Both the position numbers and the translations under genes were made by a program. Below are positions 18,448-39,102 of a stretch of DNA of 64,000 nt, in pieces. Origin of the DNA: Deltaproteobacteria bacterium. GTDB taxonomy: Bacteria > Myxococcota_A > Polyangia > GCA-2747355 > JADLHG01. The DNA lies in assembly GCA_020848905.1 (NCBI GenBank), contig JADLHG010000020.1, positions 8,230 to 72,229 of the forward strand. Direction: 5' to 3'. Under the pieces are notes generated by a model that searched no databases, was not told the DNA's origin, and worked only from the letters and a program-made list of their open reading frames with translations. Positions within the stretch are counted from its first letter, which is position 1, and the number at the start of each line of letters is the position of its first letter.

Positions 18448-18957
18448 CTACTTCTTCTTGGGGCAGGGGTGGCGACGCGCGGACTCCTGCTCGCACGCGG
18501 CGGACGCGTCGAAATCAGTCCGCACGCCCGTGTCCCAGTCGCAGTCCGACTTCGGGCAGACGAGGTCCGTCGTGACGAGCTCCTCCACGTCGGCGCAGCC
18601 GTTTCGGTTCGTGTCGCGGAAGCTGACCGTGCAGGTGGCAACGTGATTCGTCCAGGGGTGCGGGAAGGTGTCGCTGATCTTCGGCGCCCCGATCCCGAGC
18701 CAGCCAAGCCAGGCGAGGGGGTTGAAGCCCTGCGTGCTGCGCTCGCCGACCACGCCGCCCTTGGCGACGTAGGAGCGGCAGAGGGCGAGGGCCTCTCGAT
18801 TGTCGACGCTCGGGTCCGCGGTGCGAACCTGCGAGGCGCAGCTCTCGATGCTGCCCGGATTCGGGTCGCCTCCCTCGTCACCGCAGGCCGCGAGGGTCGA
18901 CGCCATGCCGGCGAGGAGGCAGACCGCGATGAAAGATACAGATCGGCTGACGCGCAT
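18448..18957 (-). CDS. small Cys-containing lipoprotein, tandem paralog 1
   Basis: Lipobox LAACG. It shares GDPNPGSIESCASQVRTADPSV...LCRSYVAKGGVxGERSxQGFNPxAWLGWLGIG and a C-terminal ...KK with the next gene. A near-identical nucleotide block (gcgcagctctcgatgctgcccggattcgggtc) occurs in both. Confidence 0.6.
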   Translation of the reverse strand: MRVSRSVSFIAVCLLAGMASTLAACGDEGGDPNPGSIESCASQVRTADPSVDNREALALCRSYVAKGGVVGERSTQGFNPLAWLGWLGIGAPKISDTFPHPWTNHVATCTVSFRDTNRNGCADVEELVTTDLVCPKSDCDWDTGVRTDFDASAACEQESARRHPCPKKK

Positions 18958-18983
18958 CGTGGACTCCGTGGGTGCGTGGGGCG

Positions 18984-19502
18984 CTACTTCTTCGCGCAGC
19001 GGTAGAGCTCGGTGAACTTGTCGGTGCAGACCTCGACCGTCTCCGGAACCTTATCCATGTCGGGCTTGCCGTCCTTGAACCAGCTACAGGCCTGCGTGGG
19101 ACAGTCGACGACCGCGGACATGGCCTCCGGCGCGTCGTAGCAACCGTTGTTGTTCTTGTCGCGGAGCGTGACGGTGCAGGTCGCGGCCTCGGTGGTCGTC
19201 GGATACGAAAAGCTCTTCGTCACCTTCGGGGTGCCGATGCCGAGCCAGCCGAGCCAGGCGAACGGGTTGAAGCCCTGCGCGCTGCGCTCGCCGAGGACGC
19301 CGCCCTTCGCGACGTACGAGCGGCAGAGCTGGGCCGCCTCATCCGCTTCGACACTCGGGTCCGCGGTACGAACCTGCGAGGCGCAGCTCTCGATGCTGCC
19401 CGGATTCGGGTCTCCGACCTCGCTCCCGCACGCCGCGAGGGCCGGGAGGAGGCACGCGAACGTCGCGAGACGAACCCAACGCAAGGACGGCTTGGACGAC
19501 AT
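18984..19502 (-). CDS. small Cys-containing lipoprotein, tandem paralog 2
   Basis: Lipobox LAACG. Paralog of 18448..18957 (see that entry). Confidence 0.6.
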   Translation of the reverse strand: MSSKPSLRWVRLATFACLLPALAACGSEVGDPNPGSIESCASQVRTADPSVEADEAAQLCRSYVAKGGVLGERSAQGFNPFAWLGWLGIGTPKVTKSFSYPTTTEAATCTVTLRDKNNNGCYDAPEAMSAVVDCPTQACSWFKDGKPDMDKVPETVEVCTDKFTELYRCAKK

Positions 19503-24989: not shown

Positions 24990-26915
24990 CTAGAAGGTAC
25001 CGGTTACCCCCACCATCCCGCCCCCCGGTGCGGGGCCGAAGGCCAGGTTCAGGTTGAGGTCCGGGTCCTCGCGGTAGAGACGCAGCATGCGTTCCATGGG
25101 GGTCTCCATGTAGCGCAGCGAGACGCCGAGGCCGAAGAGGAGCGCGCTCATGGCTCCGCCCATGACGTAGATCGCGGCGGGGAGGTTGGTGCTCGACAAG
25201 CGGGCGTCCACGATGCCGATCGCCACGGTGGCACCGAGGAGCAGGCCCCCCTCGACGAAGGCCAGCGCGGAGACGAGGCGCCGGCGGCGGGCCTCGCGTT
25301 CGGCGAGCTCGAGGAGGTGCGCTTCGGTGCGGGCCACGACGGACTCGAAGCTCGCCCCGGGGCGTCGGAGCTCGTCTTCGAAGGCGGCGTAGGCCTTCTC
25401 CCCCTCCGAGCGCGCGAAGAGCCGCAGGAGGCCGGTGGCCGCGAGGGCGCCGCCCCCGCCGAGGAGCACGATCGCGGAGATCTTGGTCGTCTGGTCGAGC
25501 TCGCCGCTCTTCATGCCGAGGATCACGCCCCCCGAGGCGGCCACGACCAGGCCCCCGAGGGCGCTCGTGCCGGCGAGGGTCAGCCGGTCGGCGCGGTCGG
25601 CGCGGGCGAGCGCCGCCAGGTAGTGCCGCATGCGCACCTCGTCGCGCCAGGAGATGCCGAAGACCTCTTCGGCCGCCGGGTGCCGTCGTTCGCGCGCGTA
25701 GGCTTCGGGGCCGAAGGGCTCGGCGAAGAACTCCTCGTAGAGCGCGTCGTCCCCGCGGGCGAGGAGTGGCGTCGGGCGCGGGGTGAGCATCACCGAGGCG
25801 GTCGAGGTGGGCAGGCGGATCTCGCGCAGCGTGGGGCGCCCCCCTTTGCCGCGGGCCGCGACGAGCTCTTGCACGATGGCGCCCTCGGTCACGGGCATGG
25901 GCAAGACCAGCGTCAGCTCGCGCCCCCGCTCCTTGTGGACGTCGAGGAGGCGCGTCCCCTGGAGGTCCCGCACCCAGACCCGCTGCGCCGGCGGGCCGAG
26001 CACGAGCTTGCGCCCCACCGCGCGGTCCACGGCGAACAGCGAGGCGCCTCCGTTCTGGTAGGGCCCGCGTGCGAAGACCTTGGGGCGGAAGTGCTCGTTC
26101 TTGATGCGGCGATTCGCTATCGCCACGAAGGCCGCGAGCTCGTCGTACGAGACGCGCCCGTCGCCGTTCGCGTCCGCGGCGCCGGAGAGGCCCGAGCGCA
26201 CCTCGTGGCTGAAGATCCCCGACTGCAGCTCCGACCATTCGTAGACCTCGCCGGCCGCGCTCGTGGAGAGGAAGACCCCGACCTGCGGAAAGCGCTCCAC
26301 GAAGCCGAGCTTCAGGTCCTTCGGGGTGGCCCAGCGGCGGCCGCCGGCCTTGCGCGGGCTGATCACGAAGAAGGAGTTGCAGCTGTCGAGGATCAGGTGC
26401 GCGCGGTGGGCGGGGACCTTTCCCAGCACCTCCCGCTCCAGCTCCTCGGGCCCGAGCCGGCCGTCCTCGAGCTCGAGGTAGCCCTTGCCGCGGTCCACTT
26501 GCCCGTGGCCGGCGAAGACGAAGTAGAAGACCGTGTGCAGTCCCTTTGCACGGGCCGCGCGCACCGCGTCGGCGAGCTCGCGCACGGCCTGACGCAGCTC
26601 GGCGCGCCGAGGGGCCCGCGCGGTGGCCCCGAGCCCCGGATAGAGCGCGGCCGTGGGACGATCGAAGCGCGTGAGCAGGCGCAGGTGCCCGGGTTCGGTG
26701 ATGGTGCGGAAGACCTGCACGTAGCGCGCCCCGTCGTCGTCGGCGTACTGCAGGTTCGGTCGGTGCGGCAGGAGGCTCCGGTTGTTCGTCACCACGAGCG
26801 TGAAGCCGACCTCGGAGGCGGCTTCGACGGGCGACACACTGGCGAGGAGCAGGGCGGCCAGACCCGCCAGCACACCGAACGGTCTGGAACCCGTCGCGAG
26901 CCGACGCCTCCTCAT
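24990..26915 (-). CDS. signal-peptide protein with a caspase-like (clan CD, C14-like) domain, an EF-hand-like Ca-binding loop and four C-terminal TM helices
   Basis: The ATG at 26913..26915 overlaps the anti-sigma gene stop (ATGA). Signal peptide MRRRRLATGSRPFGVLAGLAALLLASVSPVEAA. His-Gly dyad FVFAGHGQ and Cys motif HLILDSCNSFFV match the caspase/metacaspase pattern (HG ... D-x-C). DANGDGRVSYDEL is an EF-hand-like loop. Four hydrophobic helices lie in the last roughly 200 aa. The 810-aa track ORF over-extends upstream. Confidence 0.45.
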   Translation of the reverse strand: MRRRRLATGSRPFGVLAGLAALLLASVSPVEAASEVGFTLVVTNNRSLLPHRPNLQYADDDGARYVQVFRTITEPGHLRLLTRFDRPTAALYPGLGATARAPRRAELRQAVRELADAVRAARAKGLHTVFYFVFAGHGQVDRGKGYLELEDGRLGPEELEREVLGKVPAHRAHLILDSCNSFFVISPRKAGGRRWATPKDLKLGFVERFPQVGVFLSTSAAGEVYEWSELQSGIFSHEVRSGLSGAADANGDGRVSYDELAAFVAIANRRIKNEHFRPKVFARGPYQNGGASLFAVDRAVGRKLVLGPPAQRVWVRDLQGTRLLDVHKERGRELTLVLPMPVTEGAIVQELVAARGKGGRPTLREIRLPTSTASVMLTPRPTPLLARGDDALYEEFFAEPFGPEAYARERRHPAAEEVFGISWRDEVRMRHYLAALARADRADRLTLAGTSALGGLVVAASGGVILGMKSGELDQTTKISAIVLLGGGGALAATGLLRLFARSEGEKAYAAFEDELRRPGASFESVVARTEAHLLELAEREARRRRLVSALAFVEGGLLLGATVAIGIVDARLSSTNLPAAIYVMGGAMSALLFGLGVSLRYMETPMERMLRLYREDPDLNLNLAFGPAPGGGMVGVTGTF

Positions 26916-27745
26916 CGCGCACCTCGCAGCGTCAGGGACCACTCCTGCACGTGCGCCTCGGGAAAGAGCCGCGCGAGCGAGGGGGCCTTCCCGGCGTCGC
27001 GCAGGAGCGCCTCCACCTGCTTCACCGAGCGGCGCTGCCGCGAGACGACCGAGACGGCGCGCAGGAGGCCGGGCTTCGCGTCGGGGGCGAAGACCTCGTG
27101 GAGCATCACGCGGCGCCCCCGCGGCAGGTCGAGCGCGAGCGGAGCCTTCGCCGGGTCGTCCCAGCGGGGGGCCGCCCAGTGCACCTCTCCCCCGGCCTCG
27201 ACGACGAAGACCAGCAGATAGAGCGGCGTGGGGGTGAGCCGGCTCACCTCGACCGCGAGACCCTCGTCGGCCGCGAGCAGATCGTGCGCGTTCAGGCGCC
27301 GGGGAGCGCCGTGCCGCTTTGCCGCGTAGAGCTCGACCCCCGTCAGCTCCTTCAGGCTCTCGGCCGTCGGACCGCCGCCGCGGGCCTGAAAGGTCTCCGC
27401 GCGACCGCCGGTGTGGCGCCACAGATAGACGCAGAGCGGAACGGTCACCGCGAGCACCGTGGCCGCGAGCGCGTAGGGGAGCCAGGAGGCGCGCGACGTC
27501 GCGGTGGGCGAGGGGTCGAGCCGGGCCATCGTGCGCGCCACGAAGGCCGCGGTGTCGGGCGAGGCGTCAGACGACACGCCTGGGGCCGGCGAGGCGATGG
27601 CCGCGAGCGTGACCTCGAGCCGAGAGGCGCGCGACCGGCACTCGCCGCATTCACCGAGGTGCGCCTCGAGGGCGCGAGCGCGCGCCACGGCCACCTGCTC
27701 CTCGCGCAGCGCAAGCAACTCGTCGTCGCTGGGGCAGCTCGTCAT
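26912..27745 (-). CDS. anti-sigma factor (zinc-finger HxxxCxxC type) with one TM helix
   Basis: HLGECGECR motif near the N-terminus, a single TM helix (LPYALAATVLAVTVPLCVYLW), then a periplasmic domain. Its start overlaps the sigma gene stop by 4 bp and its stop overlaps the next gene's start by 4 bp. Confidence 0.6.
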   Translation of the reverse strand: MTSCPSDDELLALREEQVAVARARALEAHLGECGECRSRASRLEVTLAAIASPAPGVSSDASPDTAAFVARTMARLDPSPTATSRASWLPYALAATVLAVTVPLCVYLWRHTGGRAETFQARGGGPTAESLKELTGVELYAAKRHGAPRRLNAHDLLAADEGLAVEVSRLTPTPLYLLVFVVEAGGEVHWAAPRWDDPAKAPLALDLPRGRRVMLHEVFAPDAKPGLLRAVSVVSRQRRSVKQVEALLRDAGKAPSLARLFPEAHVQEWSLTLRGAR

Positions 27746-28338
27746 GCGGAAACCTCCAGTCGGGCGCGTAGCGCGCGCAGACCCAAAAAGACGCGGGAGC
27801 GCACGGTGGCCTCGGGCGCGTCGACGATCGCTCCCACCTCGGCGTACGAGAGCCCTTCGCCGAAGCGCAGCAGCACGGCCTCGCGTAGCTTGGGGGAGAG
27901 ACCCCGGAGCTCGCGGTGCACACGTTCCGTGCGTTCGCGCCGGAGGAGCGCGTCGAGCTGCTCGGCGCGGTGCGACGGCTCGTTTGCCGCCGGGGCGTCC
28001 TGGAGCACGCGCTCGCGGCGAAAGAACCCGCGACGCGCGTTGCGGCAGACGTTGCGCACGATGGTGAAGAGGTACACGGCAAACTGCCCGTCCGGCCGAT
28101 AGCGCGCCCGGGCCTGCCAGAGCCGCAGAAACGCCTCCTGGGCCAGGTCCTCGCTGCGCGCGCCGTCCCACTTGGCGCAGAAGCTCCGCACCCGTCGCTC
28201 GTGTCGCGCGACGAGCGCGGCGAAGGCCTCGCGCAACCCGGCCGCCGCGAGCTCCATCAGCTCGTCGTCGGAGCGTGCCGCGAGCCCGCCCGGTTCGGGG
28301 CGCGGAAACGGCAGCACCTTGGGCTCGAAGCCGGGCAT
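27742..28338 (-). CDS. ECF (sigma-70 family, RpoE-like) RNA polymerase sigma factor
   Basis: Region 2 and region 4 motifs (AQEAFLRLWQARARY..., FTIVRNVCRNARR, LSYAEVGAIVDAPEATVRSRVFLGLRALR). About 198 aa, typical of group IV sigma factors. Confidence 0.8.
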   Translation of the reverse strand: MPGFEPKVLPFPRPEPGGLAARSDDELMELAAAGLREAFAALVARHERRVRSFCAKWDGARSEDLAQEAFLRLWQARARYRPDGQFAVYLFTIVRNVCRNARRGFFRRERVLQDAPAANEPSHRAEQLDALLRRERTERVHRELRGLSPKLREAVLLRFGEGLSYAEVGAIVDAPEATVRSRVFLGLRALRARLEVSA

Positions 28339-28611
28339 CTAGGTACCAGAACCCCCCTAGGCCGGTTTCGTTTAGCAGGGGCGGCGTTCTTTTCCTAGGC
28401 AGGCCGCCCCGCCGGGTGTCTCGCCGCCGCCCCGTAGCCCGCACGACCCCCCGGCGCCCCTCGCCCGTCCTGGCCAGCGGCCCAGCCAGCTCCCGCCCTG
28501 CGGGTCCTCCCACGAGCCCCGCGAACTGCCTATCCTTTTCACGCCCGCCGGCCGTCGTCGGTTGGTCCAGATGTTGCTGTCTCTTGTTTGCACAGGACGC
28601 TGGCCCCACCC

Positions 28612-30285
28612 ATGCCCCGACGGTACAGACTGTTCGTACGTCTCTCCGTGGCCCTCGCGCTGCTTCTGGCGGCCGCGGTGGGTCTCGAGCGACCCAGCGC
28701 CGCCGCGGGGCCAGGCGCGCTCGCGCGACGGTTCTTCGCGGGGCTCGCCAAAGGGCGGGTGAAAGGCTCGCGCGAGCCCGGCCTCGTGCTCGCGGCCAGC
28801 CCCAGCCAGCCGGTCGTGACGTCGCTCTTCGCCGTCGCGCGCAAGGTCGCACGTGGCGGGGCGCTCCATCCGGTCGGGATCGAGCCTTTCTCGAACGACG
28901 AGCTCAGCCTGCGCGTCCCGGCCGCTGTCCAGGGACGATCGATCGTGGTGGCGCAGCCCGCGGAGGCGCGCGAGCCCTCGACGGCGCTCTTCCGCACCCT
29001 GCTCGCGGTGGCGGCGAGCCAGAGCAACCTCGCCTCCTCGGTCCACGTGGTCCTCGATCGCGGCCTCGCGAAGCGCTTCGACCCGGCCTTCGTGGCCACG
29101 CTCTTCTCCGCGCTACACGCGGACTCGCTGCGCTACGCCGATGCGCACGGCGGCCCGCTCGAGCGACTTCTGCGCCCGCTCCGCGGTTCCGCCCTGGCCC
29201 AACGCTTGGGCGTCGACGGACCCCTCGTTCCTCGGCCGGTGCACCTGCCCCGCGAGGGACGCCGTTCCAAGCGCTCGGGCAGCGCCGCTCCGCCGCTGCT
29301 CTGGAGCGGTCACGGCTACCCCGAGCTGGCGCGGGGCGTGGGCGAGGCGATGGGGCTCGCGCCGCGCTTTCTGCCGACGGAGAAGGCCTTCCAGGGCCGC
29401 CAGATCCTCCCCGAGGACCCGGCCGGCCGACGCGTCTATCTCCTGCAGACCAAGCGCCTCGGCGATCCCGAGGCCCTGCACCGGGACCTCTTCGAGGTGC
29501 TCTACGCCGCCTGGCAGGCCAAGCAGCGCGGGGCCGCCGAGGTCACTCTCGTCATGCCCTATCTGCCCTACTCGCGCTCCGATCGCATGGATACCGCCGG
29601 CACCACCGTGGGCGCCGCGGTGCTACCGCAGCTCGCGCGCGCCGTCGGCGTGGACCGCGTGGCCTTCTACTCGGTGCATCAACCCCAAGAGGTCGGCTTC
29701 TTCCTCGGGCAGAAGATCCAGGTGCTGCACGCCTCGGGGGAGGCGGTCCTCGCCCCGGCGGTGGCGCGCCATCTGAAGGCCAAGCTCACGCCGAAGGAGC
29801 TCGCCAAGCACGTACGGGTGCTCGCGCCGGATCCGGGGGCACGCAAGCGCGCGCTGGTCTTCGCGCGCCTGCTCGCCGCCGAGCTCGGCCTGCCGGAGGT
29901 CAAGGTCGTCGTGGCCGAGAAGGAGCGGCACGGCCGCGACGTGAAGACCCGCTTCACCGCGAACGTGCGCAAGGCGGTGCTCGTAGCTATCGACGACGAG
30001 ACGGCGAGCGGCAAGACCCTCGCGCAGCTCGTCGAGCCGGCGCTCGCGAAGGGTGCGACCTCGATGCTCGCCGCGGTGAGCCACCTCACGGGGCCGGCCT
30101 ACCGCCTGCTCGACAGCTCGCGGCTCGAGCGGCTCTTCGCCCTCGACACCGTGCCGCAGCCGCGCGAGCACCACGACAACGCCAAGATCGAGATCGTGAG
30201 CGTGGCCCAGGCCGTGGGCCGGCTGCTCACCACCCTGGATGGGAGAGGGGACCTCTCGAAACAGCTCTTCTGGGAGCACGAATAA
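28612..30285 (+). CDS. ribose-phosphate pyrophosphokinase (PRPP synthetase)-like protein with a Sec-type signal peptide and an N-terminal extra domain of about 190 aa
   Basis: Signal-like N-terminus MPRRYRLFVRLSVALALLLAAAVG. The C-terminal roughly 340 aa align with Prs: VYLLQT.., EVTLVMPYLPYSRSDR (compare PYFGYARQDR), AVGVDRVAFYSVHQPQEVGFF (compare VDRVLTVDLHAEQIQGFF), VLAPDPGARKRA (compare VVSPDIGGVVRA), and the PRPP loop VLVAIDDETASGKTL (compare VLVDDMIDTGGTL). Residues about 35-215 have no recognisable family. Confidence 0.7.
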   Translation: MPRRYRLFVRLSVALALLLAAAVGLERPSAAAGPGALARRFFAGLAKGRVKGSREPGLVLAASPSQPVVTSLFAVARKVARGGALHPVGIEPFSNDELSLRVPAAVQGRSIVVAQPAEAREPSTALFRTLLAVAASQSNLASSVHVVLDRGLAKRFDPAFVATLFSALHADSLRYADAHGGPLERLLRPLRGSALAQRLGVDGPLVPRPVHLPREGRRSKRSGSAAPPLLWSGHGYPELARGVGEAMGLAPRFLPTEKAFQGRQILPEDPAGRRVYLLQTKRLGDPEALHRDLFEVLYAAWQAKQRGAAEVTLVMPYLPYSRSDRMDTAGTTVGAAVLPQLARAVGVDRVAFYSVHQPQEVGFFLGQKIQVLHASGEAVLAPAVARHLKAKLTPKELAKHVRVLAPDPGARKRALVFARLLAAELGLPEVKVVVAEKERHGRDVKTRFTANVRKAVLVAIDDETASGKTLAQLVEPALAKGATSMLAAVSHLTGPAYRLLDSSRLERLFALDTVPQPREHHDNAKIEIVSVAQAVGRLLTTLDGRGDLSKQLFWEHE

Positions 30286-30311
30286 GGACGGGATCGAGGG
30301 AAAGGGAAAGG

Positions 30312-31349
30312 ATGAGGGAGATGAGACGCACGCGCTGCACCACTTCGATCGTCGCCGGGTTGCTCGCCGCGACGCTCTTCGCCGCACTGCCCGCCGGCGC
30401 GACCAAGCGCACGGGCAAGCAACCCACCGACCGTATCCTTCTGCCGCGCGTGAGCTCGGAGCGGGCGGTGCGCGAGATCGGCCAGGCGATCGTGCGCAAG
30501 GTCCTCGCCATGGGCAAATCGGGGGTGGTCCTCGGGCTCTCGGGTGGCTCGGACTCCACCGTGGTCGCCGGCATCACCAAGCGCGCCTTCGACGCCTACA
30601 ACCGGCAGAACCCGGACAAGCCGCAGCTCGAGGTGGTGGGGATGATCCTCCCCTCGAAGACCAATACGGCGCAGGACACCGCGGACGGCGTCCTCGTGGC
30701 CAAGACGCTGGGCATCCGCTACGAGGTGGCGAGCATCGAGCCGCTCGTGCGCGCCTTCAAGAAGGTCAACCGCGCGGCCATGAAGAACTCCTTCACCAAG
30801 GGGAACACCATGTCCGAGCTTCGCGCCGTGGTGCTGCACACCAAGGCGGCCTCGGACACCGACGCGCAGGGACGTAACAAGTTCGTGATCGGGACCGGCA
30901 ACCGCGACGAGGACGTGGAGACGGGCTTCTACACCCTCTTCGGGGACGGGGCCGTGCACTTCAGCCCGATCGGCAACCTCTCCAAGCGGCACGTCTTCCA
31001 GCTCGCGCGGTGGTTCGGCTTCATGGACATCGCGCGCAAGGAGCCCTGGGCGGGCCTCGAGGCGGGGCAGACGGCCTTCAAGGCGCTCGGCTATCACTAC
31101 GCCCTCGCCGAGCTCGTGAACCGCGGCGTAGAGCAGGGCTTCACCGCCGAGGTCCTTGCGCGGCAGCCCCAGGTGCTGCGCCGGGCGGGCAAGGACCTGG
31201 GCGACTACCAGAGGCTCTTTGGCGCGCCGAAGTACGCGACGGTTCGCGAGCTCGTGGACGCCATCATCTGGCGCAAGGAGCATATCGCCAAGCCCAAGGG
31301 CGAGCTCGTTCGCCCCGAGGTGGCCGGCGTCACCCTGACCTATAGGTAG
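30312..31349 (+). CDS. nadE: NH3-dependent NAD+ synthetase (NadE) with an N-terminal Sec-type signal peptide
   Basis: PP-loop VLGLSGGSDS. FVIGTGNRDEDVETGFYTLFGDGAVHFSPIGNLSKRHVFQLA aligns with E. coli NadE [40 protein letters not shown]. The N-terminus MREMRRTRCTTSIVAGLLAATLFAALPAGA/TKR is a classical n-h-c signal. The mature core aligns from about residue 30. Confidence 0.8.
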   Translation: MREMRRTRCTTSIVAGLLAATLFAALPAGATKRTGKQPTDRILLPRVSSERAVREIGQAIVRKVLAMGKSGVVLGLSGGSDSTVVAGITKRAFDAYNRQNPDKPQLEVVGMILPSKTNTAQDTADGVLVAKTLGIRYEVASIEPLVRAFKKVNRAAMKNSFTKGNTMSELRAVVLHTKAASDTDAQGRNKFVIGTGNRDEDVETGFYTLFGDGAVHFSPIGNLSKRHVFQLARWFGFMDIARKEPWAGLEAGQTAFKALGYHYALAELVNRGVEQGFTAEVLARQPQVLRRAGKDLGDYQRLFGAPKYATVRELVDAIIWRKEHIAKPKGELVRPEVAGVTLTYR

Positions 31350-31358
31350 GATCGGACC

Positions 31359-32231
31359 GTGCGGCTCAGGCGTCTCACCCTCCTCGTCGCGCTGCTCCTT
31401 TGCAGCGGCTCGCCCGCCTGGGCCAAGCTCCCGGCGGGGGCCGACGCGACGGTGCTCGTCGAGGGGGACCCGCGTACGCGCTTTCGGGTGGCGGGCCTCG
31501 ACCTCGCCTCCGGGCTGAAGCCCGGCACGCGCATCGCCCTGCTCGGGGCCTCCGTAGATCCCATCTCGCTCGCGCATCTGGTCCTCGCCGCGCTGCCGCT
31601 CGTCGATCCGGCGGTGCGCGCCCAGCTCGGCGTGGACCAGGTCTGGATCGTTCCCTCGCCGCCGCGACCGGACAAGGCCCAGCGCGTGCCGAACGGCCGG
31701 CGCTTCGCCTGGACGCGGCTCGCCGCGCGCTACCTGCGCAAGAAAGGCCTTCCGGTCTACGCCACCGACGTGGAGCTGAGGCTCGCGAAAGGCGGCTTTC
31801 GTGGCACCTATCAGCTCCTGAAGGCCCTCGAGCGGCGCTTCCCCGGGGTCGAGCTGAGCGTGATCGTGGGCGAGGACGTCTGGAACGACCTGCCCACGAG
31901 CAAGTGGCGCAACGGCCTCGGTGTGGTGCGCGAGCATTCGCTCTTCGTGGCCCTGCGGGGCGATCACGCGGACCCGAAGAAGGCCAAGGCGCGCGTGGTG
32001 AAGGAGGCGCTCGAGCGGCAGGCCCGGCAGGTGATCCTGCTCCCCGACGCCCAGGAACCGGGTCTGCGCGAGCGACTGACCCGGCTCCTGCCGCGGGGCT
32101 TCGACCTCAAGCTGCTGCCGACCCTCAGCAGCACTGCCCTGCGTGAGGCCTTCGCCCGTGGGGAGCGCTCGCCCGTCGGCGTGCTCCCCGCCGTGGCGAG
32201 AGCCATCCTGCGCGCTGGCTCCTACCGCTAG
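31359..32231 (+). CDS. NadD-like nicotinate-nucleotide adenylyltransferase homolog with a signal peptide and a degenerate HxGH motif
   Basis: Signal peptide MRLRRLTLLVALLLCSGSPAWA/K. NadD family motifs are present: IVPSPPRPDK (compare IIPNNVPPHRP), VIVGEDVWNDLPTSKW (compare IIGQDSLLTFPTW) and LSSTALRE (compare ISATIIRE). The N-terminal nucleotidyltransferase motif is LLGASVDPISLAHL instead of FGGTFDPxHxGHL, so the first His is replaced by Ser and the Gly by Ala. Confidence 0.6.
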   Translation: MRLRRLTLLVALLLCSGSPAWAKLPAGADATVLVEGDPRTRFRVAGLDLASGLKPGTRIALLGASVDPISLAHLVLAALPLVDPAVRAQLGVDQVWIVPSPPRPDKAQRVPNGRRFAWTRLAARYLRKKGLPVYATDVELRLAKGGFRGTYQLLKALERRFPGVELSVIVGEDVWNDLPTSKWRNGLGVVREHSLFVALRGDHADPKKAKARVVKEALERQARQVILLPDAQEPGLRERLTRLLPRGFDLKLLPTLSSTALREAFARGERSPVGVLPAVARAILRAGSYR

Positions 32232-32364
32232 TCTGGCCAGGGCGAGGGCCGCCCGGCACCGGCCCATCTGCTGGAAATCCATGGGCCCGAGGCCGCGCCG
32301 GAGCGGCACGGATCCTGCTGTCTATCGTGGGCAGCATCCGAACCGTGTCCTCGGGAGAAGGCCC

Positions 32365-33225
32365 ATGAAGGCTGCTCTGACCTCTGCATCGCTCTGGCTG
32401 GCCGCGCTCGCCGCGCTGCTGCCGTCGCCCGCCGTCGCGGCGCGCGAGCCGAAGCAGGGCTCGAACCGGGGCAAGCAGAGCTCGGTGGTCTCCATGCTCG
32501 GCGGCCGCTGTCCGACGAAGAACGGCGTCGTCGCGCTGCGCGAGCCGAAGCGCCACGGGAAGCGCGCGCTCCTCATCGTCGATCCCCAGAATGCCTTCAT
32601 GCCCGGGGGCGCCCTCGCCGTGAAGCACGGGGACCGCATCGTCCCGGTGGCGAACCGCCTGATGGGGCTCTTCGACCTGGTGGTGGTCTCGCTCGACTGG
32701 CACCCGGCGAACCACGGCAGCTTCGTCACCCAGCACCCCGGCAAGCAGGTCTTCGACGTGATCGATCTGCACGGCATCCAGCAGGTCCTCTGGCCCAAGC
32801 ACGCCCCGCGCGGTCGCAAAGGGTCGGACATCCACCCCGGGCTCGACCGGAAGCGCATCACGCACCTCGTGCTCAAGGGCAACGACAAGCGCGTGGACAG
32901 CTACAGCGCCTTCTACGACAACGGCCGGCGGAGCTCGACCGGGCTCGCCGCGTACCTGCGCTCGAAGGGGATCGAGGAGCTCTACGTGATGGGGCTCGCC
33001 ACCGACTACTGCGTGAAGTTCACCGTGCTCGACGCGGTGAAGGAAGGGTTCACCACGCACGTGATCAAGGCCGGCTGCCGCGGTGTGAATGCGCGGCGGG
33101 GCGACAGTGGGCGCGCGGTGAAGGCCATGAAGAAGGCCGGCGCGAAGATCCTCGGTGATGCGGCGCTCGAGGCCCTCCTCGGCGGCGCTCCGCAGGCCGC
33201 CCGAGGGAAGCGAGGTCAGCCGTGA
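32365..33225 (+). CDS. pncA: nicotinamidase/pyrazinamidase (PncA, isochorismatase family) with an N-terminal signal peptide
   Basis: RALLIVDPQNAFMPGGALAV matches E. coli PncA RALLLVDLQNDFCAGGALAV. GLATDYCVKFTVLDA provides the catalytic Cys. The N-terminus MKAALTSASLWLAALAALLPSPAVAA is a classical signal, followed by a linker of about 35 aa before the conserved core. Confidence 0.8.
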   Translation: MKAALTSASLWLAALAALLPSPAVAAREPKQGSNRGKQSSVVSMLGGRCPTKNGVVALREPKRHGKRALLIVDPQNAFMPGGALAVKHGDRIVPVANRLMGLFDLVVVSLDWHPANHGSFVTQHPGKQVFDVIDLHGIQQVLWPKHAPRGRKGSDIHPGLDRKRITHLVLKGNDKRVDSYSAFYDNGRRSSTGLAAYLRSKGIEELYVMGLATDYCVKFTVLDAVKEGFTTHVIKAGCRGVNARRGDSGRAVKAMKKAGAKILGDAALEALLGGAPQAARGKRGQP

Positions 33226-34841
33226 AGCGTACCGTTCGAAGCTCCCGCTTCTCCGTGCTCCTGGCCGCGCTCGCGCTCGTGCTCGCGCCCCTCGCTCCGG
33301 CGCAGGCGGCGCCCAAGCCCACGAACCCGACCACCGTGGGCCTCTACAAGAAGGGGGCGCTCGGGCTGCTCACCGACATGTACCAGCTCACCATGGGCTT
33401 CGGCTTCTGGAAGACGGGGCACGCCGACGACGAGGTGGTCTTCAACCTCTATTTCCGCAAGAACCCTTTCAAGGGGGGCTACGCCGTCGCCGCGGGTCTC
33501 GATACGGCGATCGATCTGGTGAAGAACTTCCGCATCACCGACAAGAACGTGGCCTACCTCTCCACGCTCAAGGGGAACGACGGCCGCCCGCTCTTCGACC
33601 GCGGCTACCTCCAGACCCTGCGCACCATGCGCTTCAACTGCGACATCGACGCTGTCCCCGAGGGGACGGTGGTCTTCCCGAACGAGCCGCTCCTGCGCAT
33701 CCGGGGCCCGCTCCTGCAGGTGCAGCTCCTCGAGACCGTGCTGCTCAACATCCTCAACTTCCAGACGCTGATCGCCACCAAGGCCTCGCGCGTCGTGCAG
33801 TCCGCCAAGGGGGACCCGGTCCTCGACTTCGGCCTGCGGCGCGCGCAGGGCTTCGACGGGTCGCTCTCCGCCTCGCGCGCCTGCTACCTCGCGGGCGCGG
33901 CCGGCACCTCGAACGTCGCCGCCGGCGAGCTCTTCGGCATCCCCGTCAAGGGCACGCACGCGCACAGCTGGGTCATGTTCCATCCGACCGAGGTGGAGGC
34001 CTTCGAGAACTACTCCCGCGTGATGCCCAATAACTCGGTCTTCCTGGTCGACACCTACGACACGCTGAACGGGGTGAAGAACGCGATCACCGTGGCCAAG
34101 CGCCTGCGCAAGCGCGGGCACGAGGCCCTCGGCATTCGCCTCGATTCGGGAGACCTCGCGAAGCTGAGCAAGAAGAGCCGCACCATGCTGGACGAGGCGG
34201 GCTTCCCGCAGGCCTTCGTCTCGGCCTCGAACGACCTCGACGAGCATGAGATCGCCGCGCTCAAGAAGCGCGGGGCGAAGGTCAACGTCTGGGGTGTGGG
34301 CACGAAGATGATCACCGCCTTCGACCAGCCCGCGCTCGGCGGCGTCTACAAGCTCGCCGCCGTGCGCCGCCCCGACGGCACCTGGGAGCGCAAGATCAAG
34401 CTCTCCGAGACGCCCGAGAAGACCTCCACCCCCGGCATCCTGCAGGTGCGCCGCTTCATGAAGGACGGCAAGTTCCTCGGCGACATGATCTGGGACCTCC
34501 TGAGCCCGCCCAAGGACCAGGGCCGGATGGTGAGCTACGCCGATGCGAGCCGCGTGACCCGCTTTGCCGGCGCCACGCACCAGGACCTGCTCGTCCCCGT
34601 CTTCCGGCGGGGCAAGAACGCCGCGCGCTTCGTGATGCGGCAGCTCCCGCTCGAGCAGGAGCGCGCCTACTGCCGCACGCAGCTCGAGGCGCTCCGCCCC
34701 GGGGTGAAGCGCCTGACCAAGCCGACCCCGTACAAGGTGGGCATGGAGCTCGGCCTGAATCAGGTGCGGCAGGAGCTCATGGCCAACGCGCGGTCCACGC
34801 AGGGTGCGAGCAGCCCGCGCACGCCGCGTCGCGTGAAGTAG
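33222..34841 (+). CDS. pncB: nicotinate phosphoribosyltransferase (PncB, NAPRTase family) with an N-terminal signal peptide
   Basis: The GTG start overlaps the pncA stop (GTGA). NAPRTase N-terminal motif LLTDMYQLTMGFG. Family-typical ...SRAC..AGAAGTSNV..., FGIPVKGTHAHSWVM and VDTYDT. Signal peptide MKRTVRSSRFSVLLAALALVLAPLAPAQAA. Confidence 0.8.
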   Translation: MKRTVRSSRFSVLLAALALVLAPLAPAQAAPKPTNPTTVGLYKKGALGLLTDMYQLTMGFGFWKTGHADDEVVFNLYFRKNPFKGGYAVAAGLDTAIDLVKNFRITDKNVAYLSTLKGNDGRPLFDRGYLQTLRTMRFNCDIDAVPEGTVVFPNEPLLRIRGPLLQVQLLETVLLNILNFQTLIATKASRVVQSAKGDPVLDFGLRRAQGFDGSLSASRACYLAGAAGTSNVAAGELFGIPVKGTHAHSWVMFHPTEVEAFENYSRVMPNNSVFLVDTYDTLNGVKNAITVAKRLRKRGHEALGIRLDSGDLAKLSKKSRTMLDEAGFPQAFVSASNDLDEHEIAALKKRGAKVNVWGVGTKMITAFDQPALGGVYKLAAVRRPDGTWERKIKLSETPEKTSTPGILQVRRFMKDGKFLGDMIWDLLSPPKDQGRMVSYADASRVTRFAGATHQDLLVPVFRRGKNAARFVMRQLPLEQERAYCRTQLEALRPGVKRLTKPTPYKVGMELGLNQVRQELMANARSTQGASSPRTPRRVK

Positions 34842-34842
34842 T

Positions 34843-37665
34843 CTACGGCCCGCAGGTGAGCAGGAACGGCCTCTGCGCGCCGCCCATCGTTCCCATGCCG
34901 ACGATGTGCCCTTTCTTGTTGATGGCGAGGGCACGGACGAGGGACCAGCCCGCGCCGGCGGGGAGCAGGCCGTTGAGGTCTTCGAGCTTTCCGTCCTTCC
35001 AGCGTACGGCCCGCTTCACCGATTCTCCGACGATCACCCCCGCGTCGTTGACGCCGTGGGCAATGCTGATGTCACCGCCGGGGAGCACCGTCATGCCGCC
35101 GCCCGACCAAGAGGCTGCACGTCCCTCCCCGGAGAAGTTGCTCACGACGCCCACGACGAGCCCTGACGCGTTGATGCCGTTGGCGCTGCTGAGCCTCCAG
35201 TCTCCAGATCCCGCACCCAGATCCTGAACCCCTCCGCCGCTGAAGAGGCACGCGTGCGCGTCGGGGCCGACACCGGGCGCCGCCGGCAGATTGGCCTGTC
35301 CCACCACCTGATCCGCCTCGTTCAGCGCGTGGCCCTGGCTGTTGTCGCTGAGCGTGCCCAGGTCCGTGACGCTGCCGCCGGTCCAGAGAACGGCGTGCGA
35401 GAAGCCCGTGCTCAGCGCGGCCCGGCCGGCTACATGGCCCGCTTGGTTGATGGCGTAGGCCACGGCCACGTTTCCGCCGAGCGTCCCGAGGTCCTGCATC
35501 GCCCCGTTGTGCCATATGAACGCGCGCTGCGTTCCGCTGCTCGACGTCGACGTACCCACCACGTCCTTGGCGTCGTTGATGCCTAGGGCTCGGCTGGTCG
35601 ATCCACCGAGGGTGCCCAGGTCCCGCATCGTGCCGTTGTCCCAGAGGAAGGCGTGCTCGTTACTCCCGCTGCTCGCGTAGCACCAGCCGGCGACCTGTCC
35701 GGTGTTGTTGAGCGCCTGGGCGGTGCAATCCCCGCCGAGCGTGCCCAGGTCCTTGATCACGCACGAGGAGCCCTTGCCGAGCTCGAGCGCCAGGTTGTCG
35801 AAGGGCAGGAGCCGCGTCATGACGAAGGCCGAGAAGTCGCTCGTCTGCCCGACGTCGGTCGCGGTGAACGGGAGGGCGAAGCTCGTCTGCCCCGCCGTGG
35901 CGGTCGCGCGGCCCGCCTCGACGAAGGAGGAGGTGCCGACCTTGCGCACCAGGATGATGTCCTTCACGTTGTAAGGCCCCACCGTGGGCGGAAACGTGAC
36001 CGTCGCGGGGTCGAGCTCGACGGTGAAGGTGACCTTGTCTCCGGCGACGAAGCTGCCCCGATCGGCGGTCAGCGTGCCCTTGGGAGACTCCGCGAGCGGC
36101 CTCGACGACTGGAGCTCGAGGATCGTGATGTCCGTGATGCCGAACTGGCCGAGCATCTTGGGCAGGTCCACGCCCACGCTCCCCTTGCTCACCAGGGACA
36201 GTTTGTAGGACGACGCGTAGGCGGGGTCCGCGAGCTGGTCGCCCCACGGCGCGAAGCTGCCCTCGAGCGTCGGCCCGTAGCGCAGGGAGAACGGGGTAAG
36301 GCGCAGCCGCTTGAAGATCGGGTTGCCGAGGCCGACCTTGGCCAGACCGAACACGGCGAAGCTGGCATCTACCCGCAGGTCGTTGGTCGTGGGTTTCTTC
36401 CAGACCGGCTCGGCGCTGGCGCTCGCCGTCAGGCTGCGTACGAACTCGCAGTTGGTTCCTTTCGGACAGGCGACGCCGAGCTCCGCCTGCGCCTTGGCCT
36501 CCGCCTTGGCGCCCACGACCAGGTTCGTCAGCGCCACCTTGCCGCCGAGCTCGACGCCGACGCTGAGGGGGATCACCACGGACACCACCCAGGAGAGCGC
36601 CCCCGCGATGGGAATGCGGAGCTCGAAGAACTCCCGCGTGCACGACACGGTGCCCTGAAAGCCGAGCGCCACGGTGAGGCTGCCGTCCAAGGTCGCGCCG
36701 AGGTCTCCCTTGGCGACCAGCCGTTCGAGGCCCACGCCGGAGGTGTAGACGAAGTCGAGGCTGAGGTTGCGGTTGATGCTGACCGCGGGGGCCGTGCCGA
36801 GCGTGACCGGCCACTGGCTCACCCCCGTGGCGTCGAGCTCGCACTCGTCGAAGGGCGGCATCTTGAAGGAGAGCTTCGTGGCCTGCCGCTCGCCGGTCGC
36901 CCCGCTCGAGGCGGCGTCCGCCTTGGGCCGAGGCTTGAAGCGGATCGTGGACCCCTCGCGCGTGATCTCGTAGGCGTCCTTGAGGTCCGAGGCGATCTCG
37001 GGCTCGACGGTCGAGAGGTCGAAGACCTCCTTGATGCTCAGGTGAGGCAGGAGCTCCTTGACGGGCACGACCGCGAGCGTGACTCGCACCTGGTCGCCGT
37101 CCCGCTGCGCGGAGACGACCTTGCCGCCGACGGGCTTGGCCTCGAGACCGATCACCAGAGTGCCCGGCGGCGGCGCGTCCACGCCGGCGAGTACGACCTC
37201 GTAGGTGGCGCCGGTCACGGGTGCGGCGCTGGGGTCGATCGCCCTCGGGTCCCCGACGAGCTGGGCGTCCGTCACCGCGAGCGCGCCCGGGGGCAACGCC
37301 GTGACGGCCACCAGGAGCGGCGGGGAGGTCACGCCCTGGGCCTCGGCGACGAGCTGACTCGCGCCGTTCTGCACCTGGGCCGTGATCATTCCCTGCCCGT
37401 CGACGGCGATGCTGGCCGGTGTGGTCGAGCGCCACGAGATGGGCGGCGCGGCCACAACGCGACCTTCGGCGTCGTACGCGTTCACCGCGAGCTGTCGCTT
37501 CGCCCCCGCGGCCGTGAGGAGCAGCCCCTTAGGGACGATCTCGAGGCGCGCGACCGGACCCGCGGGTCCCGTCGAAGCGTCCTTGCAGCCGACGAGCCCG
37601 GCGACAAGCCCGAGCGAAGACAGGTTGACTACGACCCACCACTGCCACGTCCCCCGGATGCGCAT
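34843..37665 (-). CDS. large surface lipoprotein with a Big_2-like Ig domain and C-terminal HAF repeats
   Basis: Lipobox LVAGLVGC. The N-terminal region resembles a bacterial Ig-like domain. The C-terminal third contains at least 7 repeats of DLGTLGG..S.A.GIN..G.VVG (the HAF-type extracellular repeat). It converges on the pncB stop with only 1 bp between the stop codons. Confidence 0.65.
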   Translation of the reverse strand: MRIRGTWQWWVVVNLSSLGLVAGLVGCKDASTGPAGPVARLEIVPKGLLLTAAGAKRQLAVNAYDAEGRVVAAPPISWRSTTPASIAVDGQGMITAQVQNGASQLVAEAQGVTSPPLLVAVTALPPGALAVTDAQLVGDPRAIDPSAAPVTGATYEVVLAGVDAPPPGTLVIGLEAKPVGGKVVSAQRDGDQVRVTLAVVPVKELLPHLSIKEVFDLSTVEPEIASDLKDAYEITREGSTIRFKPRPKADAASSGATGERQATKLSFKMPPFDECELDATGVSQWPVTLGTAPAVSINRNLSLDFVYTSGVGLERLVAKGDLGATLDGSLTVALGFQGTVSCTREFFELRIPIAGALSWVVSVVIPLSVGVELGGKVALTNLVVGAKAEAKAQAELGVACPKGTNCEFVRSLTASASAEPVWKKPTTNDLRVDASFAVFGLAKVGLGNPIFKRLRLTPFSLRYGPTLEGSFAPWGDQLADPAYASSYKLSLVSKGSVGVDLPKMLGQFGITDITILELQSSRPLAESPKGTLTADRGSFVAGDKVTFTVELDPATVTFPPTVGPYNVKDIILVRKVGTSSFVEAGRATATAGQTSFALPFTATDVGQTSDFSAFVMTRLLPFDNLALELGKGSSCVIKDLGTLGGDCTAQALNNTGQVAGWCYASSGSNEHAFLWDNGTMRDLGTLGGSTSRALGINDAKDVVGTSTSSSGTQRAFIWHNGAMQDLGTLGGNVAVAYAINQAGHVAGRAALSTGFSHAVLWTGGSVTDLGTLSDNSQGHALNEADQVVGQANLPAAPGVGPDAHACLFSGGGVQDLGAGSGDWRLSSANGINASGLVVGVVSNFSGEGRAASWSGGGMTVLPGGDISIAHGVNDAGVIVGESVKRAVRWKDGKLEDLNGLLPAGAGWSLVRALAINKKGHIVGMGTMGGAQRPFLLTCGP

Positions 37666-38310: not shown

Positions 38311-39102
38311 ATGTCCCGTCGCACATCTATCTCGTTTCTTCCCGTGCTCGCTGCAGCGCTCGCCGTGGGCTGCGGCATCCCCGAGGAGGAGCACAACAAG
38401 ACGCTCGATCAGCTCAAGAACCTGCGAGCCAACCTGGCCGCCGAGCAGAAGTCCTGCGCCGAGGCCAAGAGCGAGCTCGAGACGAAGCACAAGAAGCTGG
38501 ACGAGCAGGCGCGGAAGATGCGCGCCAAGCTCATCTCGCTCGGGCAGGACCTCACGGCCAGCGGGGTGGCGATCACGCAGAAGGAGCAGCAGATCGCCGA
38601 GCTCCTCAAGGCGCAGGAGCAGGCCAAGCAGCGCGCTGCCTTCTACGCCGGCCTCGTGGCCAAGTTCAAGCAGATGATCGACTCGGGCAAGCTCAAGGTG
38701 GAGGTGCGCTCGGGCAAGATGATCGTGAAGATGAGCGACCAGATCCTCTTCGACCCGGGCAAGGCCAAGCTGAAGAAGGAGGGCTCCGTCGCGCTGCTCG
38801 AGGTCGCGCGCATCCTGGGCACGATCCCCGATCGCGCGTTCCAGGTGGCCGGCCACACCGACAACGTGCCGATCAAGACGGCGCAGTTCGCCTCGAACTG
38901 GGAGCTCTCCACCGCGCGCGCCGCGAACGTGGTCAAGTTCATGTCCGACAACGGGCTCGACCCGAAGCGCCTCTCCGCGGCGGGCTACGCCGAGCACGAC
39001 CCGGTGGCGGGCAACGACACGCCGGCGGGGCGGCAGCTCAATCGCCGCATCGAGATCACGCTCATGCCGAACCTGGACGAGCTGCCCAAGATCGGGGAGT
39101 AG
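38311..39102 (+). CDS. OmpA/MotB-family lipoprotein with an N-terminal coiled coil
   Basis: Lipobox LAVGCG. A coiled-coil segment, then an OmpA C-terminal-like domain: AGHTDNVPI...FASNWELSTARAANVVKFM...GYAEHDPVAGNDTPAGRQLNRRIEI. Confidence 0.75.
   Translation: MSRRTSISFLPVLAAALAVGCGIPEEEHNKTLDQLKNLRANLAAEQKSCAEAKSELETKHKKLDEQARKMRAKLISLGQDLTASGVAITQKEQQIAELLKAQEQAKQRAAFYAGLVAKFKQMIDSGKLKVEVRSGKMIVKMSDQILFDPGKAKLKKEGSVALLEVARILGTIPDRAFQVAGHTDNVPIKTAQFASNWELSTARAANVVKFMSDNGLDPKRLSAAGYAEHDPVAGNDTPAGRQLNRRIEITLMPNLDELPKIGE

Follow-up and report, generated by a model that had tools for sequence, protein, structure and literature searches.

The Preiss-Handler route of NAD+ salvage is canonically cytoplasmic and runs through PncA, PncB, NadD and NadE, with pncB and pncA commonly found as a gene pair. 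The ATP-using enzymes of NAD+ synthesis normally act only inside the cell, and the textbook bacterial periplasm has neither ATP nor pyridine-nucleotide metabolism. Here we describe a five-gene operon at positions 28612-34841 of a 64,000-nucleotide stretch of contig JADLHG010000020.1 (the window), which comes from one metagenome-assembled genome (MAG) labelled 'Deltaproteobacteria bacterium' and is about 71% GC throughout. The operon encodes members of these four families, whose catalytic motifs it shares, together with a homolog of the phosphoribosyl pyrophosphate (PRPP) synthetase Prs, and all five proteins begin with a predicted signal peptide. An initial interpretation made without database searches (the sequence-only reading) had proposed that these genes form an exported NAD+ biosynthetic module. 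The analysis presented here was carried out entirely in silico and covers one lineage.

In contrast to the canonical route, the window set joins all of the steps and the Prs homolog in one operon, and its proteins have a signal and a linker, an isoelectric point (pI) of about 10 rather than about 5-6, and few or no Cys residues. Self-contained NAD+ pathways have also been described from phages, where NARP1 (Adps and Namat), NARP2 (Nampt and Nmnat) and NARP3 (PnuC-like and NadR-like) rebuild NAD+ (10.1101/2024.02.11.579819, PMC12774641, PMC13586617, PMC13464706). As is proposed for the window operon, these are accessory sets that are independent of the housekeeping route, and NARP1 shares with it a PRPS-like enzyme and an enzyme of the type II phosphoribosyltransferase family. 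However, the NARP pathways are phage-encoded, cytoplasmic and leaderless and consist of two genes, whereas the window set is chromosomal, has five genes, proceeds via nicotinate and carries export signals.

Exported enzymes of pyridine-nucleotide metabolism are known from the periplasm of Haemophilus influenzae, where the ATP-independent hydrolases NadN and e(P4) break NAD+ down to nicotinamide riboside, which is then taken over by PnuC and NadR. Those enzymes are degradative, whereas the window set is biosynthetic and ATP-dependent and runs in the opposite direction. The lumen of the endoplasmic reticulum (ER) contains a signal-bearing hexose-6-phosphate dehydrogenase and secretory kinases, and Zymomonas exports an NADP-bound glucose-fructose oxidoreductase by the twin-arginine (Tat) pathway. 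The intermembrane compartment of Ignicoccus has its own ATP chemistry outside the main cytoplasm (PMC5468417, PMC4243693). These three cases are conceptual precedents for nucleotide-dependent enzymes beyond a membrane, by analogy and not by homology. To our knowledge, no such energised compartment, ATP supply or cofactor pool has been reported from any myxobacterium. Literature searches found no description of exported NAD+ synthesis in bacteria, in agreement with the sequence-only reading, which had not recognised a described system. The arrangement is unlike every described NAD system that we found, while the enzymes themselves belong to known salvage families.

A complete set of salvage enzymes

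The operon consists of the following genes:

28612-30285, plus strand: Prs-like ribose-phosphate diphosphokinase homolog (557 amino acids (aa), ATG start)
30321-31349, plus strand: NadE, NH3-dependent NAD+ synthetase (342 aa; alternative ATG start possible at 30312)
31359-32231, plus strand: NadD/NMNAT-like nicotinate(nicotinamide)-mononucleotide adenylyltransferase (290 aa, GTG start; locus tag IT371_09635)
32365-33225, plus strand: nicotinamidase PncA (286 aa)
33222-34841, plus strand: nicotinate phosphoribosyltransferase (NAPRTase) PncB (539 aa, GTG start)

The genes are co-directional and their spacing is operon-like, with successive gaps of 26-35 nt, 9 nt and 133 nt and a 4-nt GTGA overlap between the pncA stop and the pncB start. 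The coordinates, the overlap, the 9-nt gap between nadE and nadD and the quoted N-terminal peptides all agree with those of the sequence-only reading. Profiles, alignments and motifs support its assignment of PncA, PncB, a NadD-like enzyme and NadE as a complete Preiss-Handler route, accompanied by a PRPP-synthetase homolog as the putative PRPP supplier.

NadE, PncA and PncB score well above their family cut-offs. NadE reaches 131.9 bits against TIGR00552 (cut-off 63.65), has a single NAD_synthase domain with no glutaminase domain, and carries the SGGSDS P-loop (ATP-pyrophosphatase loop) at residues 74-79; its best PDB match is the P. horikoshii NadE 2e18. PncA scores 249.4 bits against NF008623 (cut-off 174) and 79.1 bits against Pfam Isochorismatase. 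Its triad D73 (LIVDPQN), K171 (VLKG) and C216 (ATDYCV) and its metal site DWHPANH (111-117) align with the corresponding residues of the A. baumannii nicotinamidase 2wt9, the best PDB match. PncB scores 563.7 bits against NF006695 (cut-off 469), contains the NAPRTase_N, NAPRTase and NAPRTase_C domains, and aligns with its best PDB match, the E. faecalis NAPRTase 2f7f, at 373 bits across residues 42-511. The GTHAHS motif at 244-249 is identical in 2f7f and corresponds to the GTxAHS segment of NAPRTases, which we take to hold the phospho-histidine.

The Prs-like protein scores 130.7 bits against the NCBIfam model TIGR01251 (cut-off 113). It is assigned to a divergent Prs subfamily because every equivalog-level model falls far below its cut-off. 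Residues 227-536 align with residues 2-291 of the T. thermophilus Prs 7pn0, and the motifs PYLPYSRSDR (316-325), HQPQEVGFF (356-364), KER (437-439) and DDETASGKT (461-469) are recognisable. The first of these has SRSDR in place of ARQDR/K, and PRPP synthesis from ribose-5-phosphate is a prediction. The AlphaFold2 (AF2) model (pLDDT 78) has a leader helix (2-22), a disordered basic linker (24-53), a folded extra domain (58-180), a second disordered linker (184-222) and the Prs core (227-545). The N-terminal extension of 25-60 aa that the sequence-only reading gave for each protein is thus too short in this case, where signal, linker and extra domain together span about 228 aa.

The NadD-like protein is the most difficult of the five to place by profile. 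It lies below all NCBIfam cut-offs (best score 52 bits, cut-off 240; TIGR00482 50 bits, cut-off 112), and a Pfam scan gave no CTP_transf_like match. Exhaustive phmmer searching of 1.8 billion representatives returned 610 NadD/NMNAT-like matches, with alignments from residue ~57. The AF2 model (pLDDT 86.5) has only nicotinate mononucleotide (NaMN) or nicotinamide mononucleotide (NMN) adenylyltransferases among its top 50 PDB matches (target-normalised TM 0.69-0.82). Its motifs are GASVDPISLAH (63-73), PSPPRPDK (99-106) and SSTALR (257-262). The first contains S-x-x-H, a variant of (H/T)xxH with Ser in the place of the His of bacterial NadD or the Thr of eukaryotic NMNAT; the second His and SSTxxR are kept, as are 18 of the 18 invariant columns in an 18-sequence subfamily alignment. 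On the basis of motifs and predicted fold, the adenylyltransferase is placed in the NadD/NMNAT family despite its sub-cut-off profile scores. Thr occupies the position of this Ser in the match P0026 and in the long duplicated matches P0016, P0017 and P0019, which resemble eukaryotic NMNATs.

The catalytic motifs are intact in all five proteins, and activity is predicted; those of Prs, NadE, PncA and PncB were confirmed against solved structures. A NARP1-like reading of the set, with Adps, a Namat-like enzyme and ADP-ribose (ADPR), was rejected as the primary one: PncB is an equivalog-level NAPRTase, the set includes a NadD, and the Prs core resembles cellular Prs more closely.

N-terminal leaders and protein composition

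At 71% GC, in-frame upstream DNA is rich in Ala, Leu and Arg codons and can mimic signal peptides, and the leaders might be non-coding sequence read in frame ahead of real, internal starts. The GC content at third codon positions (GC3) is 0.77-0.93 in the first 30 codons and 0.86-0.93 over the whole extensions, a coding level close to that of the cores (0.90-0.96), and falls to 0.50-0.70 in non-coding upstream sequence. Shine-Dalgarno (SD) motifs (GAGG, AGGA, GGAG and GAGG) lie 3-7 nt ahead of the signal-including starts of nadE, nadD, pncA and pncB, and none of the internal in-frame start candidates of the genes is preceded by one. The Prs-like gene is the case that best fits an artefact, as its start lacks an SD motif and the GC3 of its first 30 codons is the lowest of the five (0.77). 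The five genes recur in a second, independent assembly (ENA ERZ27258500; 7.47 kb, 98.7% identical), where the gene caller picked equal starts (557, 342, 290, 286 and 538 aa). Differences between the two strains fall largely at third codon positions. Both differences in the pncA leader are synonymous, and those in the PncB leader (R9L, A18V and V20A) retain hydrophobicity. The GTGA overlap and the 9-nt spacing make sense only with the signal-including starts, and all seven Prs-like relatives with intact N-termini, in other genomes, have equivalent leaders. An annotation artefact is now very unlikely, with a mere sliver of probability left to it, and internal starts or dual isoforms were rejected since no internal start has SD support.

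Elsewhere in the operon differences between the assemblies are rare. A local hypervariable patch is seen at 34808-35179 in comparison with L025, with a 3-nt deletion and an 18-nt insertion; the differences cluster at the C-terminus of PncB and at the 3' end of the convergent lipoprotein gene downstream.

Signal peptides were scored with a home-made heuristic and not with a trained predictor (SignalP, DeepTMHMM). It combines the charge of the n-region, the best 9-residue hydrophobic core, the length of the uncharged stretch and the -3/-1 site. All five operon proteins are positive, with 1-4 Lys or Arg and no Asp or Glu before the core, a best 9-mer Kyte-Doolittle (KD) hydropathy of 2.3-3.2, an uncharged stretch of 15-24 residues and A-x-A at residues 22-32. 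Among controls, 0 of the 119 closest NadE homologs and 2 of 149 NadD-like homologs were positive, one of the two being the closest relative, P0013. The predicted signals are residues 1-27 in NadE (ALPAGA|TKRTG; core aligned from about residue 40), 1-22 in the NadD-like protein (GSPAWA|KLP), 1-25 in PncA (PSPAVA|AREPK, followed by a basic linker to residue ~65) and 1-29 in PncB (LAPAQA|APKPT; core from residue ~45), and the A-x-A site of the Prs-like protein lies at about residue 32. As judged by this heuristic, all five N-termini fit the n-h-c, A-x-A layout of a Sec signal cleaved by signal peptidase I. The tripartite architecture recognised by the sequence-only reading is thus borne out, on cores that are otherwise full-length and of cytoplasmic type.

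Other export routes were considered and rejected. PncA and PncB have no RR, and RRYRLF (Prs-like), RRTRCT (NadE) and RRLTLL (NadD-like) lack the Tat consensus after RR; the h-regions are strongly hydrophobic, unlike the weakly hydrophobic Tat type. Lipoprotein sorting does not fit the sole leader Cys, in the NadD-like protein (LLLC|SG), which has Leu at -1 and is followed by a better A-W-A site.

The mature proteins also differ from their homologs in composition. Their pI is 9.9-11.0 (Prs-like 10.3, NadE 10.0, NadD-like 11.0, PncA 10.3, PncB 9.9), or 9.6-11.1 for the cores alone, with a net charge of +2.4 to +8.4 per 100 residues. Median values among homologs are 4.6 for PncA (maximum 5.5, n=12), 5.6 for PncB (maximum 6.0, n=13), 5.9 for NadE (maximum 9.6, n=119) and 6.7 for NadD-like proteins. 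The mature Prs-like, NadE and NadD-like proteins contain no Cys in 1108 residues, a lack that only about 10% of NadE or NadD-like homologs share. PncA retains its catalytic Cys and two more, and PncB has three. Neighbours of cytoplasmic type are acidic to near-neutral and contain Cys; they include a glyoxalase-family protein and likely electron transfer flavoprotein (ETF) subunits and an acyl-CoA dehydrogenase (44-48 kb), the last two named from their N-terminal sequences only.

The signal-bearing proteins of the window fall into two composition classes, which may mark different destinations. The basic, Cys-free class comprises the NAD operon, the OmpA-family protein W29, W30-W33 and W40/W41, and the acidic, Cys-rich class comprises W14/W15 (~6% Cys) and W18 (7% Cys). 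The composition of W29, encoded at 38365-39102, is akin to that of the operon proteins. Composition weakly favours the periplasm or a vesicle lumen as the destination, because it resembles that of this OmpA-family neighbour and is unlike that of the acidic, Cys-rich secreted class.

Relatives, islands and neighbouring genes

Searches of 185,579 species-representative genomes, among the matches to which the source genome does not appear, identified the nearest PncB relatives in Nannocystaceae, Pirellulaceae and Bryobacterales (50-58% identity). These sit in ordinary pncB-pncA pairs (18 genomes), have only a few residues ahead of the core and are leaderless, and no nadE, nadD or prs was found beside the pairs. 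NadE has its nearest relatives at 50-55% identity (~300 aa); these too begin at the core and have no leader. That the nearest relatives of NadE, PncA and PncB are leaderless argues that at least three unrelated genes of this lineage acquired their leaders separately. The comparisons also suggest that nadE may have been acquired horizontally before it gained its leader. The closest NadE relatives share a C-terminal extension, and several of them are named from Nanoarchaeota/Woesearchaeota (DPANN) MAGs.

Protein databases including JGI contained no relative closer than 48-55%. For the NadD-like protein a word-based search found only the protein itself, and no match of the exhaustive phmmer search exceeded 38% identity. 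The closest relative, P0013 (L006:790-1713; 38% identity), is encoded on a 2.4-kb contig of a low-GC organism; it too carries a signal-like leader, with an extension of ~55 aa, and two small signal-bearing open reading frames (ORFs) flank its gene. P0013 is acidic (pI 4.9), unlike the NadD-like protein of the window.

The Prs-like family is small: its members number only about 10 and come without exception from Polyangia or Myxococcales MAGs or metagenomes. Six of the eight full-length sequences, including the window protein, are positive by the heuristic, and the other two are signal-like by eye. All nine relatives have no Cys past residue 35, compared with 9 Cys in the 340 aa of an ordinary leaderless Prs match. 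The median pI of the relatives with intact N-termini is 9.8 (n=7), and the Prs motifs are invariant within the family. In other genomes the Prs-like genes are not beside NAD genes and lie inside runs of genes for signal-bearing, basic, Cys-free proteins, at L003:3378-17954, L001:5190-15130 and L002:2084-11542 of Polyangia/Myxococcales contigs. Most of the island products combine a signal-like leader with a pI of about 10 and no Cys past residue 35, and they belong to families that are normally cytoplasmic. The L003 island has 13 consecutive genes whose products are signal-bearing by eye; 11 pass the heuristic, 11 have no Cys past residue 35, and all are basic except one lipoprotein. Their domains include Pkinase (a Ser/Thr kinase), Trehalose_PPase, Metallophos (the lipoprotein), DSP-PTPase/PTP-NADK, Ppx/GppA and glucose-6-phosphate dehydrogenase (G6PD), and several follow directly on the leader, with Pkinase starting at residue 31 and G6PD_N at 38. 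The L001 and L002 islands add SLOG/LDcluster4, and L001 also a PI3_PI4-kinase-like family. The G6PD, kinases and phosphatases of the islands resemble the enzyme set of the ER lumen. From these gene contents, the window operon looks like one case of a wider export, in this clade, of ATP-, sugar-phosphate- or NAD(P)-using enzymes.

Low-complexity linkers rich in Lys and Arg lie past the predicted cleavage sites in the window (28684-28770, 30402-30440 and 32440-32560) and in L003 island proteins; examples are TKRTGKQ and REPKQGSNRGKQ in the former and AKKQAVAKKKVAPKR in L003. Such linkers could be a tag for retention at, or binding to, an anionic surface or polymer.

Upstream of the operon lie the following features:

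26912-27745, minus strand: putative zinc-binding anti-sigma factor (one transmembrane segment, no Pfam match), divergent from the operon
27742-28338, minus strand: extracytoplasmic-function (ECF) sigma factor (Pfam Sigma70_r2/r4), divergent from the operon
28339-28611, no strand assigned: intergenic region that separates the divergent ECF sigma and Prs-like genes (273 bp; presumed promoter or promoters)

The intergenic region contains no recognisable sigma-70 promoter, riboswitch or operator, and the sequence upstream of the operon has just two weak 12-nt palindromes. No shared promoter motif was found that would tie the operon to the ECF sigma factor, whose co-regulation with it the sequence-only reading had called plausible. 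A GAAC...CGTC pair resembling an ECF promoter was rejected for its wrong spacing. The single terminator-like site lies inside nadE on the wrong strand, and no Rfam family reaches its gathering score anywhere in the window. The neighbour at 24990-26921 (minus strand), described as caspase-like by the sequence-only reading, has no Pfam peptidase C14 match and only a weak EF-hand match; GHG and DSC motifs, a signal-like leader and C-terminal hydrophobic segments are present.

The gene downstream of pncB converges on it from the minus strand and encodes a 940-aa lipoprotein with the lipobox LVGC. Two tandem pairs of signal-type proteins are encoded on the minus strand: M14 carboxypeptidase-like paralogs of 352 and 383 aa (49652-51858), and small, Cys-rich, lipoprotein-like proteins of 169 and 172 aa whose mature sequences are almost the same at the N-terminus (18448-19502). 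A single ORF of 2890 aa at 55303-63975 (minus strand) has a strong coding signal and no signal peptide.

Proposed export of NAD+ synthesis and its alternatives

In our preferred reading, which we consider about evenly balanced between right and wrong, the operon would be an accessory, exported copy of Preiss-Handler NAD+ salvage in an uncultured Myxococcota (Polyangia-like) bacterium. The five proteins would cross the inner membrane via Sec, be cleaved and fold outside the cytoplasm, most likely in the periplasm or in periplasm-derived vesicles; translocation and cleavage are what we infer from the leaders. PncA would convert nicotinamide to nicotinate and NH3, and PncB would combine nicotinate with PRPP, provided by the Prs-like enzyme, to give NaMN. 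The NadD-like enzyme would form nicotinate adenine dinucleotide (NaAD) from NaMN and ATP, and NadE would make NAD+ from NaAD, ATP and NH3, possibly reusing the NH3 released by PncA. The NAD+ would serve other exported enzymes that use nucleotides or NAD(P), as may be encoded in the islands around the Prs-like relatives. The core of the module proposed by the sequence-only reading thus holds up, with the start codons, the leaderless homologs, the shift in pI and Cys content and the signal-bearing Prs-like family in its favour. The roles proposed with it (action at the prey interface, supply of an ADP-ribosyltransferase) find no support in the window, where no exported NAD+ consumer was seen among the neighbours.

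Several points weigh against exported synthesis. The extracytoplasmic supply of ATP and ribose-5-phosphate is the weakest step: Prs, NadD and NadE need ATP, PncB uses it facultatively, and we know of no pool of ATP, PRPP or ribose-5-phosphate outside the bacterial cytoplasm, in the Gram-negative periplasm. Pfam scans of 30 neighbouring proteins revealed no NAD+-consuming or nucleotide-exporting partner. Apart from the second assembly, no counterpart of the five-gene cluster came up in the databases, and the synteny across Myxococcota that had been suggested as a check was not seen; the cluster is known from one lineage represented by two assemblies. NadE, the NadD-like protein and PncA, as predicted in mature form, carry basic residues at positions +1 to +3, and basic residues just past the cleavage site hamper Sec export in E. 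coli; the ordinary secreted neighbours W33 and W41 are likewise basic at these positions. In PncA only a single basic residue precedes the hydrophobic segment, the net charge behind it is +3, and an inverted topology is possible. Signal-like N-termini are also frequent in the window (about 19 of 45 rough gene calls, ~40%), and Myxococcota MAGs each encode roughly 1,200 signal-bearing proteins of unknown location (PMC11495043). The argument of the sequence-only reading that five of five is not chance is weaker as a count because signals are so common here, and its significance rests on enzyme families that are otherwise leaderless.

The difficulty over ATP and PRPP disappears if the proteins are exported and then released, by type II secretion or in outer-membrane vesicles, and act where ATP, ribose-5-phosphate and nicotinamide can be had, in lysed or permeabilised prey, in a host cell or in sibling cells that take up vesicle cargo. 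Myxococcota have very large predicted secretomes tied to predation (PMC11495043), and secreted proteins of hydrolase type (trypsin-like, M14-like and NAGPA) abound in the window. A strongly basic surface would favour binding to anionic envelopes or DNA, and the eukaryote-like kinases (Pkinase, and PI3_PI4_kinase-like in L001) and DSP phosphatases of the islands resemble effector repertoires. However, the operon has no linked secretion-system genes, vesicle markers or delivery domains, and there is no obvious gain from NAD+ made in prey or lysate, as most bacteria cannot import it. The basic, Cys-free composition also fits W29 and not the acidic, Cys-rich W14, W15 and W18, and we regard release as unlikely. 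Cytoplasmic ATP and PRPP would equally be usable, with no new biology needed, if the N-termini were uncleaved membrane tethers (or gave two isoforms) that hold a salvage metabolon at the membrane with catalysis in the cytoplasm. By the positive-inside rule the charges before and after the hydrophobic segment allow an N-out/C-in orientation of NadE (+3/+3) and PncA (+1/+3), and basic linkers stand behind the hydrophobic segment in most of the related island proteins. The Prs-like protein, the NadD-like protein and PncB, in which 3-4 basic residues precede the core and fewer follow it, are instead predicted to be C-out. Short cores (15-24 uncharged residues) of the hydropathy given above with a top-scoring A-x-A are typical of cleaved signals and not of ~20-residue anchors, internal start candidates lack SD motifs, and loss of Cys with a shift in pI is not expected in a reducing cytoplasm. 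Tethering is on these grounds quite unlikely.

Export for a purpose other than building NAD+ retains an outside chance. The adenylyltransferase might carry out pyrophosphorolysis of NAD+ or NaAD, the set might deamidate and scavenge pyridines from lysate, or the Prs-like enzyme might pyrophosphorylate another ribosyl acceptor such as ADP-ribose; the product would then be a non-canonical nucleotide. The Prs-like family occurs elsewhere without NAD genes, beside SLOG/LDcluster4, kinase-like and phosphatase genes, and its conserved role is not NAD-specific for that reason. The Prs-like protein has its extra N-terminal domain and the variant SRSDR motif, the NadD-like protein is divergent, with its sub-cut-off scores and S-x-x-H motif, and PRPS-like folds can be repurposed for ADPR, as in phage Adps (PMC13586617). 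Against this, PncA and PncB are well over equivalog cut-offs, the Prs-like core scores higher with cellular Prs (TIGR01251, 130.7 bits) than with the Prs-like family of phages (phrog_619, 69 bits), and no reverse role for NadE is plausible. The operon-like set holds exactly the five activities that lead from nicotinamide to NAD+ and no extras, for which the canonical pathway is the simplest explanation.

Several independent computational lines confirm that the feature is real and surprising in this one lineage. It is a tentative and rather unlikely extension that a clade of Polyangia-type myxobacteria has ATP- and NAD(P)-dependent reactions beyond the cytoplasmic membrane, in an energised periplasm or vesicle lumen somewhat comparable to the ER lumen. 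A dedicated set of signal-bearing, basic, Cys-free enzymes (kinases, phosphatases, Ppx/GppA, G6PD and a Prs-like diphosphokinase) would work in that compartment, with the operon as its NAD+ supply. The export signals and the basic, Cys-poor shift argue that some myxobacteria may use ATP and NAD cofactors beyond the membrane, or may send cofactor-making enzymes to other cells. Either outcome would raise the question of how ATP is supplied and what purpose the NAD+ serves. If true, it would also account for the kinases, phosphatases and G6PD with export signals that are linked in the relatives. The signature of a signal, a pI of about 10 and no Cys could serve in mining for more 'cytoplasmic' enzymes that have been relocated.

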